From Pseudonocardia sp. (GTDB lineage: Bacteria; Actinomycetota; Actinomycetes; Mycobacteriales; Pseudonocardiaceae), in contig JAJCYC010000269.1 of assembly GCA_029263115.1 (NCBI GenBank), positions 930-64,929 of the forward strand: DNA of 64,000 nucleotides. The letters run 5' to 3'. Position numbers and translations under genes: made by a program. The notes below the pieces were generated by a model. The model did no database searches. It was not told the DNA's origin and saw only the letters and a list, made by a program, of their open reading frames with translations. Below are positions 7,086 through 39,543 of the stretch, piece by piece. Position 1 is the first letter of the stretch. Each line of letters opens with the position of its first letter.

Positions 7086-10000
7086 ATGTCGCTGCCGCTC
7101 TACTACTACGTGCTCGGCACGCCGCTGGGCATCCTCGGCCTGTTCCGCTGGGGTTGCTGGCTGATCCGCCGCATCCCGGCCGTGCTCTACCGGCCGGTCA
7201 CCGGCGACCACCGGCTGCCGATGACCATCGTCGTGCCCACCTACCAGGAGGACCCGCGGATCTTCGCCACCGCGATCGAGTCGTGGCTGGCGAACGGGGT
7301 CGAAGAGGTCATCCTGGTGATCGACGCCTCCGACGCCGTGTGCCAGGAGGTGGCCAGCCGCTACCCGGTGCGGGTGCTGATCACCGATGTGCCCGGCAAG
7401 CGCGACGCGCTGCGCATGGGGTGGAACGCCGCGCGCACCGAGCTGGTCGCGCTGGTCGACTCGGACACGATCTGGGCGCCCGACGTGGCGGCCGAGGTGT
7501 GCAAGCCGTTCGCCGACCCCCGCATCGGCGGTGTCGGCACTCGGCAGAACGTCTACGGCTCCAAGGGCTTCCTGACCCGGATCACCGACATGTTCCTGGA
7601 CCACCGCTACTTCGACGAGAACGCCAGCCAGAGCCTGCTCGGCCAGGCGGTCTCCTGCCTCTCGGGGCGCACCGCAATCTACCGTCGCGCGCTGCTGATG
7701 GAGATCGAGCACGAGTTCATGAACGAGACGTTCTGGGGCGTGCCGTGCCTGTCCGGTGACGACAAGCGGCTCACCACGCTGATCCTGGAGCGCGGGCACA
7801 AGACCTACATGCAGCGCACCGCCCAGGTGTGGTCGACCTTCCCCACCACCTGGAACATCTTCTTCAAGCAGCGGCTGCGCTGGGCCCGCAACACCTGGCG
7901 GTCCGACCTGCGCGCGCTGTCCAAGCCGTGGGTCTGGAAGCACAAGTTCCTCGCCTACACCATGATGGACAAGGGGATCAGCAGCTTCACCCTGCTGGTC
8001 GGACCGGCATTCATGATCTACTCGATCGCGGTCCAGAACTGGGTGTTCTGCGGCATCCTCGCCCTGTGGTGGCAGATCAGCCGGTCGGCGAAGCTCCTGC
8101 CGCACCTGCGCCGCCGCCCGTCGTCGTTCTTCCTGGTGCCGGGATACGTGATGGTGTCCTGGGTGATGGCGCTGATCAAGCTGTACGCCCTGCTCAGCAT
8201 CCGCAAGCAGCGTTGGCTGACCCGCGAGGTGGCCGTCGAGGGTGGCGCCGTGGTGCGTACCAGCCGGCCGGCAGAGCTCGGCGCGGGCGCCCCGCCGGAG
8301 TCGGTGACCGTGGAACTGGCCACCGGCGTGGCCGACAGCGCTGAACTGGTGTGCGTGGGCCCGGCGGCCGCCGAGCGGACGAGCAAGGGCACGGTCGGCG
8401 GCCTGCGGACCACGCTGGTGCTGCTGGTCGTGCTGGCACTGGTGGCGGCCTTCGCCTACCTCGTGCAGCCGGGGCGGACCCTGGTGGCCGCGCCGAAGTT
8501 GGTGTCATCCTTCTCGCTGGCTCCCGCATTGCAGCCCGACGACGGTGGTTCGGACTCCGGTTCCGGTGGTGGTTCGGACGGTGGTTCGGACTCCGGCTCC
8601 GGCGGTGGTTCGGACACCGGCTCCGGCGGTGGCTCCGACGACCCGACCACGTCGCCGCGCCCCACTACGCCGAAGCCGACCAAGGACGCGGCGGCCGAGG
8701 CGCTGAAGAAGCAGCAGAAGGCCGAGGCGAAGGCTCAGGAGCAGGCGGCCAAGCGGGCCCAGGAGGCGGCTCGCGAGCGGGCCGAGGCAGCCGCCGAGGC
8801 CGCAGCCGACCGGGCCCGGGCCCAGGCCCGCTCGGCGAAGGCCTGGGAGTCGCGTGGTCGTCCGGCCCGGATGATCGTGGTGCGCGACTTCGCCGTCGAG
8901 TCGGTGCAGGGCGGCCGTCTCGTGCAGCAGTCGGCCCGTCCGGGCGGCGCGCTGAACCTGGCCGTCATGGACCGGCTGGTGCCGGCCGACTGGCTGGTGA
9001 TGACCGGCGACCAGGCACGGCTGAACTCCGTGGTCACCATGACCCCGGGCAACACCCTGGACATCGGTGGGGTGAAGACCCTGCAGCTGACCGGTGGCCC
9101 GGCGCTGGCCGACGCCTCGTCGATCTACACCGGCAGCGGCCGGATCACCGCACGCGGCGTCACCGTCACCTCGGTGGACCCGGCGACCAACGAGCCGATG
9201 GCCGCAGGCGCCGGCCGGCCGTTCATCGTGGTCGCCCGCGGCGGTGGCATGGACGTCACCGACGCCACCTTCAGTGACCTCGGCACCGCGGTCACCGACC
9301 CGGAGAGCCGCAGCGGCGTGCAGTACAACGAGGGCGCCGGCGGCGTCCTGGAGCGCGCCACCTTCGTCCGCAACACCATCGGTCTGCGGCTGGCCCGCTC
9401 GCAGGGCGTGCGCCTGGACGGCATCACGGTCAAGGAGTCGGTCACCGACGGCCTCGAGCTCGACGGCGACCAGGGCACCACCCTGGCCGGCATCCTGGCC
9501 GAGAACAACGGGGCCAACGGCGTCCTGGTCAAGGGCGAGACCGCCGACCGGGTGCTCTCCGGGATCACCAGCTCCGGCAACGGCGAGTACGGCCTGTCGG
9601 TGGTTGGGCAGCAGAACCCGAAGATCCTCGGTGTGGCCACCGCGGCGGACAAGAACGGTGGTCTCCGGATCAACCGCTCGACCAACGCCCTGGTCGCCGA
9701 CTTCACCGCGACCGACCAGCCGATCGGTGTGTTCACCCACGTCGGCAGCACCGGCCTGGTGTTCGAGCGGGTGCGCATCGAGGGCGGCCGCCGGGGCATG
9801 GTCTTCGAGAAGTCCACCACCGGTGTCCTGGTCAAGGAGAGTTCGGTCGTCGGCGCCCGCTCGATCGGGGTGTCCATCGGTGGCAAGGAGATCACCCTCG
9901 ACCGGCTCACGGTCGACGGTGCCCGGACCGGGGTGCGCATCCAGCGGGGCGCGGACGGGATCCACACCACCGGGCTGACCGTCACCGGTGGCGAGGACGG

Positions 10001-33511: not shown

Positions 33512-34441
33512 TTGCCCAGCTCCTTGCTGTTCGCGGGGCTGGTCGCCACCTGGTTGGCGGTGGCGGTCCCGATGGCCGCCCGTCGCCGCCAGCCGATGAC
33601 GCGGCCCAGCGACGCCGCGTTGTCCTCCCGGGTGCTGGCCCGACCGGTCCGCGGACCACGGCGCGAGGAGGTGAGCGGCACGATGAGCGAGCAGGTCGAC
33701 GCGGCGCGCCGCTACCGCCCCGGGCGTGGTGGGTACGACCCGGAGGCTGCGGCGCTGGCCGCCCAGGCCCGCTACACCTTCCGTCAGCGCGCGGTGCTGG
33801 TGCTGGTGCTGACCGCGGCGACCACCGCCCTGGTCGCCGTGGTGCTGGTGGTGCCCGAGGCCTGGTGGGTGCACGGCGCCGCCGATCTGCTGCTGGTCGG
33901 CTACCTGGTCAACCTGCGTCGCCAGGTGCGCAGCGAGCAGGCGATCCGGGCCCGCCGCGCCGCCCGGTTGGCCGGCTCCCGTCCGGCCGCGGCCGCCGCC
34001 CGGCGACGCGCCCAGAGCGGGGCAGGCGGGGCCCCGGCGGCCGCCCCGTCCGGCCGGGTGCTGCGCCGCTCGGGTCGACGCGGTCGGGCCGCCGCCGGGC
34101 CGCACGTCGCCGCGGGTGTCGATGAGCCGACCGGGCAACCGGACGCCGGATCGGACGAGGGCCTCGACTCGGGGCCCACCGGGTCGCCGGACGGCGGGGC
34201 CCCGGAGGACGGGCCCGGCGCGGTCCGGGCCGACCACGGTGCCGACCTCGGGGACGCGCTGGTATCCGGCCGGCCCGGTGCCGAGGCCGCCGAGCCGCCG
34301 GCGCTGCCGCCGCTGGCCCCGGTGCCGCTGCCACCCCACCCGGCCGGCACGGTGGCCCTGGAGCTGGACGCCGAGGACCCCGAGCTGCACGAGCTGGACC
34401 CCGGTCAGGGCTGGAGACACCGTCGCGCGGCCGGCCAGTGA
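33512..34441 (+). CDS. Conserved actinobacterial membrane protein, SepX/GlpR-like (Rv0996 position)
   Basis: In ORF 33479..34441. TTG at 33512 lies 5 nt after GGGGGAGG. N-terminal TM LLFAGLVATWLAVAVPMAARRR, two further TM helices, then a long disordered Ala/Arg/Gly/Pro tail. Confidence 0.6.
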   Translation: MPSSLLFAGLVATWLAVAVPMAARRRQPMTRPSDAALSSRVLARPVRGPRREEVSGTMSEQVDAARRYRPGRGGYDPEAAALAAQARYTFRQRAVLVLVLTAATTALVAVVLVVPEAWWVHGAADLLLVGYLVNLRRQVRSEQAIRARRAARLAGSRPAAAAARRRAQSGAGGAPAAAPSGRVLRRSGRRGRAAAGPHVAAGVDEPTGQPDAGSDEGLDSGPTGSPDGGAPEDGPGAVRADHGADLGDALVSGRPGAEAAEPPALPPLAPVPLPPHPAGTVALELDAEDPELHELDPGQGWRHRRAAGQ

Positions 34442-34477
34442 CCGGCTGCTAGGCTGGTCGAGCCCGTTCGGGCACCG

Positions 34478-34550
34478 GGGGCTGTGGCGCAGTTGGTAGC
34501 GCGACTCGTTCGCATCGAGTAGGTCAGGGGTTCGATTCCCCTCAGCTCCA
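34478..34550 (+). tRNA. tRNA-Ala (anticodon CGC)
   Basis: Folded by hand into a 73-nt cloverleaf: acceptor GGGGCTG/CAGCTCC with G3:U70, D-arm GCGC/GCGC, anticodon stem ACTCG/CGAGT with loop TTCGCAT, T-arm AGGGG-TTCGATT-CCCCT, discriminator A. CCA is not encoded. Confidence 0.9.
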
Positions 34551-34763
34551 CCCAGTTAGTCATGTGGCGAGCCGGGTCTGTGGACCCTGTTCGTGCTGTT
34601 CGCGGGACCTGTGACCTTTTGGCGCCGTGGTGGTCGCTGCGGTGTCGTGTGTCGCTGCAGTGGCGGTGTGGGGCCAGTGGCGGGTGGAGTTTCGAGGCCG
34701 CCGCGCCCAAGTGCGTCTACCTGGCGATCGAGCCTGTGCGCCTCGGCTGCGGGCCCGTCCGCG

Positions 34764-35381
34764 TCAGCTGCGGAAGTCGGCGGGCCGCTCGCGGGGCGCG
34801 GCCGCGCCGTCCAGCAGTCCGGTGGGCAGGTCGGGCAGGTCGGGCAGGTCGGGCACCGCCTTGAGCGGGACGGTGACCATCACGACGGCCGCGCAGCGGG
34901 GCCGCCTCACCCGCCGCCACCGCAGCGGCCCCGGTCTCCTCGACCGGCGCGGACACCGTCTGCGGTCCCCGCGAGTTGGCCACCGCCACCTCGTGGCCCA
35001 GGGCGGTCGGTCGACGGGATGCCACGGCGAGTCCGGAATCAGCAGCTCCGGGTCTCCGGTCCAGAGCTGTCCCCGGTGCACCATCGCGGTCGCGGCGGTG
35101 AAGGCGTCCGGGTGGGCCATGGCGTGCCTGGCCTTGACATCCGCGGCCTGCCGGACGACCCGCTTGGTCGGCAGCTCGACGTCCACCGCGCGCACCAGGT
35201 CGCGGACGGGGGCGTTCGCTTCGTCGGGCCCTCGACGGCGCCGCAGGACGTACATCACCTCGCCGAGGTTGATCCAGCTCATCACCGGCCGGTCCGCGAG
35301 CGCCCGCTCCACCCGTTCCGCGCCGGGTTGCTCATTCCCGAGCAGGCACAACACCGCCCACGAATCGAGGACCACCGTCAC
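34764..35381 (-). CDS. PIN-domain (VapC-like) protein with aberrant about 75-aa C-terminal extension
   Basis: The GTG start at 35381 overlaps the upstream stop (GTGA); alternative ATG 35396. VVLDSWAVLCLLGNEQPGAE...SWINLGEVMYVL...HPDAFTAATAMVHRGQLWTGDPELL carries the four acidic PIN positions. Downstream of about 34990 the best-GC3 frame changes twice before the stop at 34764. Confidence 0.65.
   Translation of the reverse strand: MTVVLDSWAVLCLLGNEQPGAERVERALADRPVMSWINLGEVMYVLRRRRGPDEANAPVRDLVRAVDVELPTKRVVRQAADVKARHAMAHPDAFTAATAMVHRGQLWTGDPELLIPDSPWHPVDRPPWATRWRWPTRGDRRRCPRRSRRPGPLRWRRVRRPRCAAVVMVTVPLKAVPDLPDLPDLPTGLLDGAAAPRERPADFRS
34824..34855 (-). repeat. 9-bp tandem repeat x3.5 (gggcaggtc), encoding PDLPDLPDLP
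   Basis: Read directly at 34824-34855, inside the C-terminal extension of the PIN ORF. Confidence 0.9.
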
Positions 35382-36919
35382 GGCGACGAACCGCATCCCC
35401 GGGTACGGGCGACATCGCGGGTCAACTCGCGGGCGGCGGCCCGGGAGGCGTTCCAGTCGCGCCAGCCGTCCGGTCGGTCCAGGTCGGCGGCGATCGGGCC
35501 CAGCACGCAGCCGCGGATCGGCTCGGGTAGCCGGGCCAGGGTCGGCACCGCGTCGGCGGACAACCCGGCCAGGTAACGCTGGTCGATCTTTCCGGTGGCC
35601 GCCCAGCGCTCGATGTTCCGCTCGGCGATGAACCGGTCCGGGTTCAGCGCGCCCAGCGCCAGCACCCCGGCCAGACCGCTGACCGCCACCACGCGCGGCA
35701 GCCACCCCGCACGCAGCCGCCGACCGGCCGCGATCAGCATCAGGTACACCAGCCCGAGCCACAGCTCGACCGCGAACACCTGCACCCGCAACACGGTGAA
35801 CCCGTAGGCCTGCTGGTAGGCCCACATCCGGCTCAGCGCCGAGCACACGATCAGCAGCGTCAGCCCGGCCAGCATGCCGAGCAGCCCACGCAGCCACGCC
35901 CGGTCGGCGACGCCGGCCACCGACGCGTAGCGGGCCGCCGCGATGAGCACCGGCAGGGTCAGCACGGTCACCTGCAGCAGCTGCCAGAACCCGCCCCGGG
36001 CGTACTCGGCGTAGGTCAGCCCGGTGGTGCGCAGCACGTGGTCGGCGCCGCCGAACAACGCGGCCACCTGGACCCCGACGAACGTCGCGAACAACGCCAC
36101 CAGCAGCCCGACCGGCAGCGCCCACTCGATCCGCCGCAGACCCCGCTGGGCGGGGCGCTCCGGGTCCGGCCGGGGCGGTGCCGCCCGCAGGTAGACCGCC
36201 GCGACGGTGCCGGCGGCGAACAGCGGGAACAGGGTGAACCAGCGGGTCAGGTCCGGTACATCGAAACGTGGAACCAGGTCGGTCAGCAGCCGGGCGAACG
36301 CCACGTCCGCGCCGGCCAGCAACGAGGCGAACAGCGCGACCAGCACCGCCGAGACGGCCAGCGCGGCGAACGTGCGCAGCAGCCCGGAGCCCACGGCGCG
36401 GGGTCCACGCAACCTCCGCGCGGCCCAGGGCAGGGCACCGAGGGCCAGGCAGGGCACCGCGACCGCGCCCACCAGCAGCCCCCGAACCGTGCGTCCACCG
36501 GCGACCGCGACCGACCCGGCCAGCGCGGCGCCCAGCACGCACCAGGGGAACAGCCACTCGGCGGCCCGCACGGTGCCCAGGGCGAGCAGGCCCAGCGCCA
36601 GCCCCGTCCACAGCACCGTCATCCCGCGACCGCGGCCTTCCGGGCCGGCGGTGTCCGTGGACGCCACCGTGCGGCCGGCCAGCACGGTCAGCCCCACCAG
36701 CGCCGCCCCCACCAGCAGCCATCCGATGCCCGGGAACGGCCCGGGCAACGCGAGGGCGGCGACCACTCCGGCAGCCGCCGCGGCGGCGGGTACCGCCGGC
36801 CGGGGCGGGCCGGCCGGACGCGGCCACACCGGTGTCCGGGGCGGTAGCAGGGGAGGTTGCGGTGCCGCTGCGGCTTCGGGGGAGGCGACCGCGGACGTCG
36901 AAGGGGTCGGCGCGGTCAT
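35378..36919 (-). CDS. Polytopic membrane protein, DUF4153/DUF4173-like
   Basis: In ORF 35378..36964. ATG at 36919 overlaps the kinase stop (ATGA). About 12 TM helices; the C-terminus ...NIERWAATGKIDQRYLAGLSADAVPTLARLPEP...WRDWNASR is, as I recall, typical of this family. Confidence 0.65.
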   Translation of the reverse strand: MTAPTPSTSAVASPEAAAAPQPPLLPPRTPVWPRPAGPPRPAVPAAAAAAGVVAALALPGPFPGIGWLLVGAALVGLTVLAGRTVASTDTAGPEGRGRGMTVLWTGLALGLLALGTVRAAEWLFPWCVLGAALAGSVAVAGGRTVRGLLVGAVAVPCLALGALPWAARRLRGPRAVGSGLLRTFAALAVSAVLVALFASLLAGADVAFARLLTDLVPRFDVPDLTRWFTLFPLFAAGTVAAVYLRAAPPRPDPERPAQRGLRRIEWALPVGLLVALFATFVGVQVAALFGGADHVLRTTGLTYAEYARGGFWQLLQVTVLTLPVLIAAARYASVAGVADRAWLRGLLGMLAGLTLLIVCSALSRMWAYQQAYGFTVLRVQVFAVELWLGLVYLMLIAAGRRLRAGWLPRVVAVSGLAGVLALGALNPDRFIAERNIERWAATGKIDQRYLAGLSADAVPTLARLPEPIRGCVLGPIAADLDRPDGWRDWNASRAAARELTRDVARTRGCGSSP

Positions 36920-37968
36920 CGGTCGCTCCCGGGGGTCGAGGGCAGGGACACCCGCACGACGCACCCGGCGGGTCCGGTCGGGTTCGGTGGCGGGTCGGTG
37001 ACGGTGATCTGCCCGCCGTGCAGTTCCACCACCCAGCGGGCGATCGCCAGGCCGAGCCCGGTGCCGCCGTCGCCGGCCCGCTCACCGCGGGTGAACCGCC
37101 GGAACACCTGGTCGCGCAGCTCCGGCGGGATGCCCGGGCCGTCGTCGCGCACCTCGATCACCTGCCGGTCGCCGTCCAACCGGACCAGCAACTCGATCGT
37201 CCCGTCGGCCGGGCCGTGCCGGACGGCGTTGTCCAGCAGGTTGACCAGCACCTGGCGCAGCCGGGCCCGGTCGGCGCACAGGGTCAGGCCCTGCGGGACT
37301 ACCCGCACCCGGAACCGGGCGGCCGTGTCGACGGGTCCGCGGCCGACCGACGGGGCGACCGAGGCGACCGCCTCGTCCAGCAGCGTCCGGGCCGGGAACT
37401 CCGCCCGGCGAAGGGTGTGCACCCCGGCATCCACCCGGGACAGCTCGAGGAAGTCGGTGACCAGCCTGGCCAGCCGCTCGCTGTGTGCCAGCGCGACCGG
37501 CAGCACGTCGGCCGGCGGGTCGCCGACGCCGTCCACCGCGTTCTCCAGCACCGCGCACAGTGCGGCGATCGGGGTCCGCAACTCGTGCGAGACACCCGCG
37601 ATCAGCTCGCGCCGTCGCTGGTCCGCGGTGGCCAGCTCGGCGGCCATCTGGTTGAACGCCCCGGCCAGCTGGCCGACCTCGTCGCGGGTGGTGGCCCGCA
37701 CCCGCCGGGTGTAGTCGCCACGGGCCATCGCCCGTGCCGCCGCGGTCATCTCGCGCAGCGGGCTGGTCATGCCGTGCGCCAGCACCTGTGCGCTGAGCAG
37801 CACCAGCGCGACGGTGACCGTCGTGTCCAGGTAGGGGGGCAGCCACCGGTACTGCCACCACAGGTAGGCCACGCCCACCGCGCCCGAGCCGAGCAGCACG
37901 ATGCTCAGCTTGAGCTTGATCGACCGCACCGGGTCCAGCGGGCGGGGCAACAGCTCCAGGAGTCTCAC
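36916..37968 (-). CDS. Sensor histidine kinase
   Basis: The C-terminal 350 aa of ORF 36916..39414. GTG at 37968 overlaps the regulator's stop (GTGA). Two TM helices, HAMP, H-box [48 protein letters not shown]. Confidence 0.85.
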   Translation of the reverse strand: MRLLELLPRPLDPVRSIKLKLSIVLLGSGAVGVAYLWWQYRWLPPYLDTTVTVALVLLSAQVLAHGMTSPLREMTAAARAMARGDYTRRVRATTRDEVGQLAGAFNQMAAELATADQRRRELIAGVSHELRTPIAALCAVLENAVDGVGDPPADVLPVALAHSERLARLVTDFLELSRVDAGVHTLRRAEFPARTLLDEAVASVAPSVGRGPVDTAARFRVRVVPQGLTLCADRARLRQVLVNLLDNAVRHGPADGTIELLVRLDGDRQVIEVRDDGPGIPPELRDQVFRRFTRGERAGDGGTGLGLAIARWVVELHGGQITVTDPPPNPTGPAGCVVRVSLPSTPGSDR

Positions 37969-38675
37969 CGGCCCGCCTCGCCCGCCGGGACCTCCAGGGC
38001 GTACCCGACGCCGTGCACGGTGCGGATCAGGTCGGTGCCCAGCTTGCGGCGCAGGCCCTTGACGTGGCTGTCCACGGTGCGGGTGGCGGCCCCTCCGTGC
38101 CAGCCCCACACCTCGCCGAGCAGCCGCTCCCGGGCCTGCACCGCGCGCGGGCGAGCGGCCAGGTAGACCAGCAGGTCGAACTCGGTCGGGGTGAGGTGCA
38201 CCTCCGTCCCGGCCCGCCGCACCCGCCGGGTCACCAGGTCCACCTGCACCTCGCCGAGGGTGACCGACTCCGCCGGGTCGGGCTCCGGGTGCAGCTCCCG
38301 CGCCCGGTCCACCCGGCGCAGCAGTGCATGCACCCGGGCGGCCAGCTCGCGCGGGGAGAACGGCTTGGTCAGGTAGTCGTCCGCGCCGACCCCCAGCCCG
38401 ACCAGCACGTCGGTCTCGTCGTCGCGGGCGGTCACCATCAGCACCGGGACCGGGCGGCGGGCCTGGATCCGGCGGCACACCTCGATGCCGTCGATGCCGG
38501 GCAGCATCACGTCCAGCACCACCAGGTCGGGTTCGGTCGCCTCCGCCCGGGCCACCGCGCCGGGCCCGTCGTGCGCCACGTCGACCAGGTAACCCTCGGC
38601 GCGCAGCCGCGCCGCCACCGCGTCGGCGATGCTCACCTCGTCCTCCACCACCAACACCCGCCGCGTGCCGCCCAT
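37965..38675 (-). CDS. OmpR-family response regulator
   Basis: In ORF 37965..38876; ATG at 38675. RVLVVEDEVSIADAVAARLRAEGYLV...DLVVLDVMLPGIDGIEVC...[18 protein letters not shown] plus a winged helix. Confidence 0.9.
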   Translation of the reverse strand: MGGTRRVLVVEDEVSIADAVAARLRAEGYLVDVAHDGPGAVARAEATEPDLVVLDVMLPGIDGIEVCRRIQARRPVPVLMVTARDDETDVLVGLGVGADDYLTKPFSPRELAARVHALLRRVDRARELHPEPDPAESVTLGEVQVDLVTRRVRRAGTEVHLTPTEFDLLVYLAARPRAVQARERLLGEVWGWHGGAATRTVDSHVKGLRRKLGTDLIRTVHGVGYALEVPAGEAGR

Positions 38676-38742
38676 AGGCTGTGACTGTAGGACCGCCGTG
38701 CGCAGGCGCGGGGGCGATGATGTGAAGGATTCGTGCAGGCCG

Positions 38743-39543
38743 ATGCGCCGCCCGGTGATGGTCGTGCTGGTGGTGCTGGTGGTCCTGGCGGGGGTGCTGG
38801 CGCTGTACCGGCTGACCCCGGTCGGCCGGCCACCGGCGGGTTGTACGGTCGCGCACGGGGCCGGCGAGGAGATCACCGCCTACCCGTTGACGGTCGAGCA
38901 GACCGACAACGCCGCCACCATCGCCGGGGTCGGCCGGCGCCTGGGCATGCCCGACCACGCGGTGAGCGTCGCGCTGGCCACCGCGCTGCAGGAGTCCGGG
39001 CTGCGCCACCTCAACTACGGCGACCGGGACTCGCTGGGCATTTTCCAGCAACGGCCCAGCCAGGGCTGGGGTCGCCCGGAGCAGCTGACCGACCCGGTGT
39101 ATGCCGCCACCGCGTTCTACCGGCGATTGCGCGAACAGCGGGACTGGCACCGGTTGGAGGTCACCGACGCCGCGCAACTGGTCCAGCGCTCGGCGTACCC
39201 GCTGGCCTACGCCCGGTGGGAGCCGCAGGCCAGGGCCGCCGCGGCCGCGCTGACCGGGGCGGCGGATGCCACCCTGACCTGCCACGACCTGGAGCTCACG
39301 GGCCCGGCCACCGGCGTGGTCACCCTGGCCGAGCGGGAGCTGGGCACCGCCGTGCTCAGCGGCGCGCACCCGGCCGAGCGCGGGCGGGCCTACGCGCACT
39401 GGCTGGTCGGGCACGCCGACCGGCTGGCGCTCGACCAGGTCGTCTGGGACGGCCGGAGGTGGACGCCCGACACCGGCGAGTGGCGTCCCACCGGTCCGCC
39501 GGACGGCCGGCTCAGCCTCCGGGTGGCGCCACCGCCGACCTGA
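38743..39543 (+). CDS. Membrane-anchored secreted protein, possibly SLT/lytic-transglycosylase-like
   Basis: In ORF 38629..39543; ATG at 38743. Signal anchor VMVVLVVLVVLAGVLALY. ATALQESGLRHLNYGDRDSLGIFQQRPSQGWG resembles the E-S ... G-[LI]-x-Q motifs of SLT domains. The family assignment is tentative. Confidence 0.5.
   Translation: MRRPVMVVLVVLVVLAGVLALYRLTPVGRPPAGCTVAHGAGEEITAYPLTVEQTDNAATIAGVGRRLGMPDHAVSVALATALQESGLRHLNYGDRDSLGIFQQRPSQGWGRPEQLTDPVYAATAFYRRLREQRDWHRLEVTDAAQLVQRSAYPLAYARWEPQARAAAAALTGAADATLTCHDLELTGPATGVVTLAERELGTAVLSGAHPAERGRAYAHWLVGHADRLALDQVVWDGRRWTPDTGEWRPTGPPDGRLSLRVAPPPT

Follow-up and report, generated by a model that had tools for sequence, protein, structure and literature searches.

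In several three-component systems, a histidine kinase (HK) that lacks a sensor domain is encoded in one operon with an accessory membrane protein. The portions of the reports cited here describe this operon-encoded protein as supplying or modulating the signal in LiaFSR (PMC3543457) and VraTSR (10.1101/2025.01.23.634444), and likewise in BceRS-AB (10.1101/2020.02.28.969956) and GraXSR (PMC3128592). In a different class of operon, the VapBC toxin-antitoxin (TA) pair, the cognate antitoxin gene lies directly upstream of the toxin gene and overlaps its start. Many annotated orphan TA genes are remnants of degraded systems, according to the cited part of a review of such genes (PMC7354431). Here we analyse a stretch of 64,000 nucleotides from Pseudonocardia sp. 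(assembly GCA_029263115.1, contig JAJCYC010000269.1, positions 930 to 64,929), hereafter the window, in which the genes for an OmpR-family response regulator (RR), an HK, a DUF4153 membrane protein and a PIN-domain protein follow one another as a chain of overlapping open reading frames (ORFs). Comparison with homologous loci makes it likely, in our judgement, that the chain combines a conserved triad, RR, HK and DUF4153, with an unrelated vapC that was orphaned by rearrangement, the two now forming one string of overlapping ORFs.

The triad resembles LiaFSR, VraTSR, BceRS-AB and GraXSR, as these are described in the excerpts cited, in that a kinase without a sensor domain shares an operon with a putative accessory membrane protein. 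It differs in its partner, a DUF4153 protein with about 10-12 transmembrane (TM) segments and no family relation to LiaF, VraT or BceAB, and in its regulator, which is of the OmpR type. The PIN gene is like the toxin genes of VapBC pairs with an AbrB/MazE-fold VapB in its four acidic residues, its start codon and the NTGA motif at that start; unlike them, it has no vapB nearby, its end is replaced by read-through and the gene upstream encodes a membrane protein. With the orphan and degraded TA genes in the cited part of PMC7354431 it has in common that a partial system is left by the decay of a canonical pair, but those cases are mainly orphan antitoxins, whereas the survivor here is the toxin, in phase with an operon and a pseudogene. 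Orphan and degraded TA genes are well documented, and the locus is another case of them, with breakpoints mapped unusually closely.

Results

Layout of the locus and the proteins of the triad

All four genes lie on the minus strand of a window with a G+C content of about 75%, in a genome assembled in 377 contigs and estimated to be 94.6% complete. The genes for the RR (37965..38675, 236 aa), the HK (36916..37968, 350 aa) and the DUF4153 protein (35378..36919, 513 aa) are followed by the PIN gene, here called vapC, whose core of codons 1-124 occupies 35010..35381. They are linked by three 4-nt start/stop overlaps: GTGA at 37965-37968, in which the RR stop overlaps the HK start, ATGA at 36916-36919, and GTGA at 35378-35381, whose TGA is the DUF4153 stop. 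An earlier note on this DNA had described the same overlaps, an OmpR-type regulator with its kinase, a membrane protein of roughly 12 TM segments, and a PIN protein that keeps its acidic residues and runs on for about 75 codons through a (PDL)3-encoding 9-bp repeat. This description has stood up well. The three overlaps are present, Pfam supports all four domain calls, hydropathy reads about 10-12 TM segments, the acidic residues D6, E41, D92 and D110 occupy invariant or nearly invariant columns, and the run-on and its repeat are in the sequence, giving a PIN ORF of 205 aa against 125-142 aa in homologues.

The RR matches Pfam Response_reg (1.8e-29) and Trans_reg_C (1.5e-22), the receiver and winged-helix domains that together define the OmpR family. 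Its best NCBIfam matches, MtrA and CseB, are both below cut-off; no NCBIfam equivalog names the RR or the HK, and none matches the DUF4153 or the PIN protein. The HK contains the Pfam domains HAMP, HisKA and HATPase_c, and hydropathy, a crude method, points to two hydrophobic helices, residues 16-34 and 46-64, that are separated by a loop of 11 residues. Because it has only two membrane helices and this short outer loop, the kinase is predicted to lack a sensing domain of its own. With its domain core and a loop too short for a sensor domain, it falls into the HisKA class of intramembrane-sensing kinases, and kinases of such build lack an extracytoplasmic sensor. The N-terminal juxtamembrane motif RPLDPxRSIKLK and the loop proline P44 are kept in 16 homologues.

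The third protein matches DUF4153 (PF13687) at E 2.7e-95 over profile positions 2-373 of 373, and 844 relatives were found. Its hydropathy profile has 13 partly overlapping hydrophobic windows, which we read as about 10-12 TM segments. The family alignment reaches to about 4 residues from the C-terminus, indicating that the C-terminus is native to the family, and C509 is nearly invariant. An AlphaFold2 (AF2) model is all-helical and confident, with a predicted local distance difference test score (pLDDT) of 86.9 and a predicted template modelling score (pTM) of 0.83. A Foldseek search of the model against the PDB was uninformative (best E 0.1, TM-scores <=0.26), which is no proof of a new fold, and VIA-align gave only equally uninformative generic helix-bundle matches (residues 257-403, Z <=10.6). 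DUF4153 and DUF4173 were taken out of the Cache clan as unrelated, as stated in the cited part of PMC4822843, and our literature search on both families did not find a functional study.

Conservation of the regulator, kinase and DUF4153 genes

A protein search of relatives found DUF4153 in 22 of 61 genomes, the source genome included. The HK gene lies directly upstream on the same strand in 18 of the 22 other DUF4153 loci, and the RR gene is also present in 17 of these 18. The four relatives without the HK comprise a contig end (L018), a fragment in a 72%-complete bin (L023), a locus with no kinase within 1.5 kb (L015), and a deletion (L024) in the closest relative, G027, which has about 90% DNA identity to the window. 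A genus-wide DNA search found the HK in 5 of 6 further DUF4153 loci. In an even sample of the phylum, 53 of 201 genomes had PF13687 above cut-off; among the best 29 loci, which we inspected, the same kinase is upstream in 12, with the RR also present in 11 of the 12. The 17 phylum loci without the kinase include the most distant DUF4153 proteins (~27-31% identity); DUF4153 is usually single-copy across the phylum and falls into kinase-linked and unlinked groups. Altogether, this kinase lies directly upstream in 35 of the 57 other DUF4153 loci. These counts include loci from genomes flagged as unpublished, L021 (G043), L140 (G208) and L145 (G178), on which no conclusion depends.

The overlaps recur as well. 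With the window's own locus included, the same 4-nt overlap joins RR and HK in 23 of 28 loci and HK and DUF4153 in 23 of 35, some of the misses being artefacts of simple start-finding. By these counts, the two overlaps are more than chance, and RR, HK and DUF4153 make up a three-gene operon that is conserved in Actinomycetota and predicted to be translationally coupled. An accessory gene conserved in the kinase operon is the hallmark of a three-component system, and such conservation is found here in relatives (18/22), in the genus (5/6) and in the phylum sample (12/29).

Two loci have lost parts of the triad. In G027 (L024, C39:35351-38539; 1495-2135), the first 147 RR codons, 92.5% identical to the window, abut the last 62 DUF4153 codons (87%), a single deletion having taken the RR DNA-binding domain, the whole HK and most of DUF4153. 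In L115 (G111:C122:1605-4803; 380-1711), a full RR gene is followed immediately by DUF4153 residues 304-503 and the kinase is absent. This is a second, independent loss, and the triad seems dispensable in some lineages.

The PIN gene as a VapC from a canonical VapBC family

The PIN protein matches PF01850 over residues 3-112 (E 4e-12; 47.3 bits against a cut-off of 23.6). Counting from the GTG start, D6, E41 and D110 are in invariant columns and D92 is in a nearly invariant one. The core is 55-72% identical to 10 aligned homologues, which start at or within 5 residues of the window's GTG codon and end in D-L-R-x. Homologues are 125-142 aa long with a median of 129 (119 homologues among the matches listed), and the window ORF, with its 205 aa, has neither this length nor this C-terminus. 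A sequence search of solved structures returned nothing at E <=0.01, and a profile search gave weak matches to Ribonuclease VapC (6nkl_A, E 0.076) and VapC26 (5x3t_B, E 0.69). The AF2 model of a 210-aa form, built on an 11-sequence alignment, was too poor to use (pLDDT 50.3, below 50 for residues 110-210).

In 77 of 80 PIN homologue loci, all taken from named public genomes, vapC is immediately preceded by a gene for an AbrB/MazE-type VapB, and one of these VapB proteins matches Pfam MazE_antitoxin at 4.5e-9. Of the three exceptions, L051 meets a contig end 80 nt upstream with a VapB-like tail still visible, L106 has an AbrB-like motif by eye, and in L075 a small ORF ends in a VapB-like tail but has no AbrB match. 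The vapB stop and the vapC start share the same NTGA overlap in 65 of 76 homologous pairs. Since NTGA is thus the vapB-stop/vapC-start motif of the family, the third overlap of the window is real but inherited from the vapBC pair.

No DUF4153 gene lies within 3 kb of the PIN gene in any of the 80 PIN-family loci, one of which has an unrelated regulator-kinase pair nearby. Conversely, the 1.5-kb flanks fetched for the 57 other DUF4153 loci contain neither a PIN nor a VapB gene. The PIN gene itself is sparse: protein searches found it in 1 of 60 related genomes (G012) and in 1 of 36 other genomes sampled within the genus, and a DNA search of 136 other genomes of the genus found it in about 5. 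The copies in G012, G061 and G107 have a vapB partner, and those loci have no DUF4153, HK or RR match. Judged by these comparisons, PIN genes of this family otherwise occur as obligate VapBC pairs, and the PIN gene appears foreign to the triad.

The missing antitoxin and the 5' junction

A cognate antitoxin gene directly upstream and overlapping the toxin start, the mark of a VapBC member, is absent from the window. A VapB profile built from 76 cognate antitoxins and run with --max against the six-frame translation of the genome gave no match near the PIN gene, and when 8 alternative-frame pieces of 35273-35830 were scanned with Pfam, none matched an antitoxin family at E <=1. The sole AbrB/MazE-type antitoxin of the assembly lies on contig C65; it reaches E 1.5e-4 with the cognate VapB profile and is 31% identical to the VapB of G012. 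We considered it as a cognate acting in trans; with this weak profile match and its own adjoining PIN sequence, it is no more than a candidate for cross-neutralisation. The C65 antitoxin (L026, C65:6479-8431; 7603-8212) adjoins a PIN match with 2 TAG stops, and C65 is thus a mirror case of the window, with an antitoxin apparently outliving its toxin.

The closest relative, G027, has the tRNA-Ala, a remnant of the oxidoreductase gene described below, the last 62 codons of DUF4153 and the first 147 codons of the RR. The two sequences stay similar past the DUF4153 stop as far as 35375, directly after the bases GTGACGG, and in G027 other sequence lies beyond. At the same position, the vapBC homologues read GTGACNG across the vapB stop and the vapC start, and both putative parent sequences have the 7 bases GTGACGG (35375..35381, minus strand) in common. 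The simplest reading of the 5' end is a single illegitimate recombination at this 7-nt microhomology, in which vapB was lost and the vapC start came to adjoin the native DUF4153 stop. Immediately beyond that stop, G027 (L024 1405-1497, minus) has two copies of a 20-nt unit, GTGACGGCGAGCCGTCAGTC, whose starts are 26 nt apart. The unit holds a short hairpin (GACGG...CCGTC), and the window retains its first 7 bases only.

The 3' end of vapC and its surroundings

VapC homology extends as far as PWHPVD, near 35010. Beyond it the gene lacks its last 3-6 codons and its stop, and with them the terminal R that is conserved in 96% of the family. The following read-through tail of roughly 80 codons and the stop of the PIN ORF are supplied by a decayed pseudogene of an F420-type NADP oxidoreductase (34764..35019, minus strand), recognised as three collinear pieces when set against intact homologues. 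Residues 16-55 lie at 35019-34900 in another frame than the PIN ORF; residues 58-73 lie within 34898-34806 in the PIN frame and contain the PDL motif; and residues 207-217, the last 11 codons, with the stop, lie at 34805-34764. Intact homologues have 220 aa, and such a homologue matches PF03807 at 2.8e-19. Pfam finds no match in the window fragments by themselves, so that their identity comes from the intact homologues: they show the collinear similarity expected of a PF03807 member without an intact frame.

The damage to the pseudogene is extensive. Its first 15 codons are missing, the frame changes near 34900, about 130 codons (residues 74-206) have no counterpart, and two extra 9-bp units have been added. 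The PDL that is single in intact homologues is tripled in the window, where three tandem 9-bp units, CCCGACCTG, at 34827..34853 (minus strand; unit starts 34853, 34844 and 34835) encode (PDL)3. A corresponding contig from another study, X3, has two copies, and such a change in copy number is as expected for slippage in non-functional sequence. The G027 oxidoreductase gene has a different internal deletion, with its start and residues 136-218 kept, and the gene is therefore decaying independently in both lineages.

A remnant of about 19 codons of an IS256/Mutator-family transposase gene (34673..34736, plus strand) sits between the pseudogene and a tRNA-Ala (CGC) gene (34478..34552, plus strand; ARAGORN, and 69 bits for the Rfam tRNA model). 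The remnant was recognised by nucleotide match and tblastn. A 44-nt piece of it matches, at 91% identity, the 3' region of an ORF of 439 aa on contig C36 (L124, 459-1775), which itself matches Pfam Transposase_mut at 1.2e-123; by tblastn the remnant corresponds to residues 384-402. Many genomes of the genus match this piece at 87-93%, frequently more than once, and the copy on C36, with its 439 aa, is intact. The tRNA-Ala gene is 100% identical in G027, and its 3' end faces the variable part of the locus. The G027 slot that is bounded by the oxidoreductase gene and DUF4153 (L024 830-1495) holds about 660 nt, partly of lower G+C (57-64%). The genome of the window has no such DNA, and neither vapB nor PIN gave a signal within these 660 nt. 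We take the site, on this comparison, to be a variable slot beside a tRNA gene. The G027 slot also holds a 71-aa ORF without a Pfam match. A 162-nt soil contig from another study (run X4, record 28) matches the PIN codons to 35009 and then continues in non-matching letters, which may be a different, perhaps parental, 3' flank of vapC.

The junctions and vapC in other populations

Further sequences were available from a second sample of the same study (X2) and from samples of other studies (X3, and X4 from soil). X2 contigs (records 13 and 15) bridge both the DUF4153/vapC junction at 35381 and the vapC/pseudogene junction at about 35010 with 0 differences, and X3 contigs (records 19 and 20) bridge both at about 99% identity. 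Because contigs of both samples bridge them, the junctions are real and not artefacts of assembly.

Compared with the X3 and X4 strains, the PIN gene has 4 nonsynonymous differences (H102R, H90Y, P58A and P52A, window to variant) and 1 synonymous difference, and DUF4153 has 1 nonsynonymous and 5 synonymous ones (Fisher p = 0.08). H90 is derived in the window, as the other strains and 93% of homologues have Y. Beside it is A91P, and A95T is found nearby; Y90H and A91P thus flank the catalytic D92. Of the 54 family columns with at least 90% conservation, the window protein departs from the consensus at 4; the median for homologues is 1. Constraint on vapC appears relaxed, and the evidence from these comparisons leans to an absence of selection without settling it.

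Other features of the locus

A scan of 34300-39200 for promoters and terminators returned 0 sites of either kind, as expected at 75% G+C, and in an Rfam scan of 34300-35500 the tRNA alone reached the gathering score. PADLOC had no match for the PIN or DUF4153 protein, and for the RR and HK it gave only generic receiver and ATPase similarities. Upstream of the RR gene lies a divergent gene (38740-39540, plus strand) for a membrane-anchored product without a Pfam family, which is shared with G027. This neighbour is upstream of the RR in 0 of 8 other loci, and the comparison thus points to no conserved divergent target gene.

Discussion

The vapC of the window would have come from an ordinary vapBC pair and been orphaned by rearrangement, with loss of its antitoxin gene. 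On this reading, recombination at GTGACGG set its start against the native DUF4153 stop, and fusion to the decaying oxidoreductase pseudogene, which would now supply the tail, deprived it of its last codons and stop. We consider it most likely that the gene is weakened or lacks effective expression and is on its way to becoming a pseudogene. Several observations weigh against such an account. All four acidic positions are kept, the 124 codons of the core are uninterrupted, the native start codon and an overlap competent for coupling are preserved, and a population sampled in another study has the same arrangement, with about 99% identity. The contrast in strain differences comes from 11 sites, with a p of 0.08, and the excess of departures at conserved columns is modest, 9 of 119 homologues departing as often. 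A 1-nt deletion at 35325, in PIN codon 19, is seen in a single X3 contig at a depth of 3.75. The microhomology is drawn from a relative of 90% identity and from vapBC homologues whose VapC is 70-72% identical in protein, which stand in here for the true parents, and the case for binding between DUF4153 and the kinase is one of gene order.

A first alternative gives the solitary VapC a function. It would be active and co-opted, as a ribonuclease or growth-arrest output made only when ribosomes finish DUF4153, and it would be restrained, instead of by VapB, by the DUF4153 tail, by a non-cognate antitoxin or by low coupling efficiency. The intact core with its acidic residues would suit this role, yet the C-terminal LR has been lost with pseudogene read-through in its place, and the strain differences are 4 nonsynonymous to 1 synonymous, with a possible frameshift allele besides. 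Likewise, the preserved 4-nt overlap with DUF4153 is inherited from vapBC, and while the arrangement exists in at least two populations, the adjacency is confined to this lineage among 57 DUF4153 and 80 PIN loci. As for the restraint, the DUF4153 tail belongs to the family also where a genome has no PIN gene, and the distant AbrB/MazE-type antitoxin on C65 falls short in both its profile score and its identity to the G012 VapB. We regard co-option as improbable. That the orphan is an active ribonuclease made only with translation of the two-component operon, as the output of membrane signalling and under a restraint other than VapB, strikes us as very improbable indeed.

These results also bear on the two explanations put forward in the earlier note. 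It had proposed that the PIN protein was recruited as the output or partner of the signalling module, and had itself held that a merely sporadic PIN gene at orthologous loci would weaken this idea. Sporadic is what the gene proved to be: none of the 57 other DUF4153 loci has it in the fetched flanks, and none of the 80 PIN loci has DUF4153 within 3 kb, both of which speak against recruitment. Its other explanation, a decaying toxin without its antitoxin, fits the loss of vapB and of the 3' end, the slot with its insertion sequence remnant and pseudogene, and the mostly nonsynonymous strain differences. The observations behind it, that VapC is normally preceded by VapB and that no antitoxin can be found here, are borne out by the 77 homologous pairs and by the profile and alternative-frame searches. 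Of the four coupled genes that it described, the coupling of RR, HK and DUF4153 is supported by recurrent overlaps, whereas the link to the PIN gene comes from vapBC; the neighbourhood, whose conservation it suggested examining, is conserved as a triad and not as a set of four. The vapC is thus probably an orphaned, decaying gene and not a recruited output.

A second alternative holds that vapC is already a dead gene, its open frame being a matter of chance in a genome of 75% G+C. Long spurious ORFs do occur on both strands here, such as frames of 773 aa and 832 aa, and the substitutions flanking D92, the lost C-terminus and the predominance of nonsynonymous strain differences are what a dead gene would show. 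However, only 4 of the 54 conserved columns depart, which points to a recent event and not to long neutrality, and we doubt that the gene is already dead. That the joins between DUF4153, PIN and oxidoreductase sequences are chimeras of metagenome-bin assembly, a concern raised by the 377 contigs and the likely biofilm metagenome source, is extremely unlikely given the X2 contigs that cross both joins without a difference and the X3 contigs from a different study.

Apart from the orphaned vapC, the triad is the part of the locus worth following, and it is more interesting than the toxin. DUF4153 would be the sensing or modulating partner of the loop-less HK, as LiaF, VraT and BceAB are for other kinases. 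We infer this partnership from gene order and by analogy with those systems. As a new member of the class of kinases with accessory proteins, the triad is a solid but only correlative lead.

For annotators, the locus is a caution: a string of 4-nt overlaps can mimic a designed operon, although the last overlap would be a fossil of another operon. The toxin here would also have survived its antitoxin, which is rare, and with its two breakpoints placed to within about 10 bases the locus would be a natural test of tolerance. The triad recurs across several actinobacterial families, and the fold of DUF4153 is predicted with confidence while having no informative solved relative. If DUF4153 is the real sensor, these genes would constitute an undescribed three-component system that is open to simple genetics.

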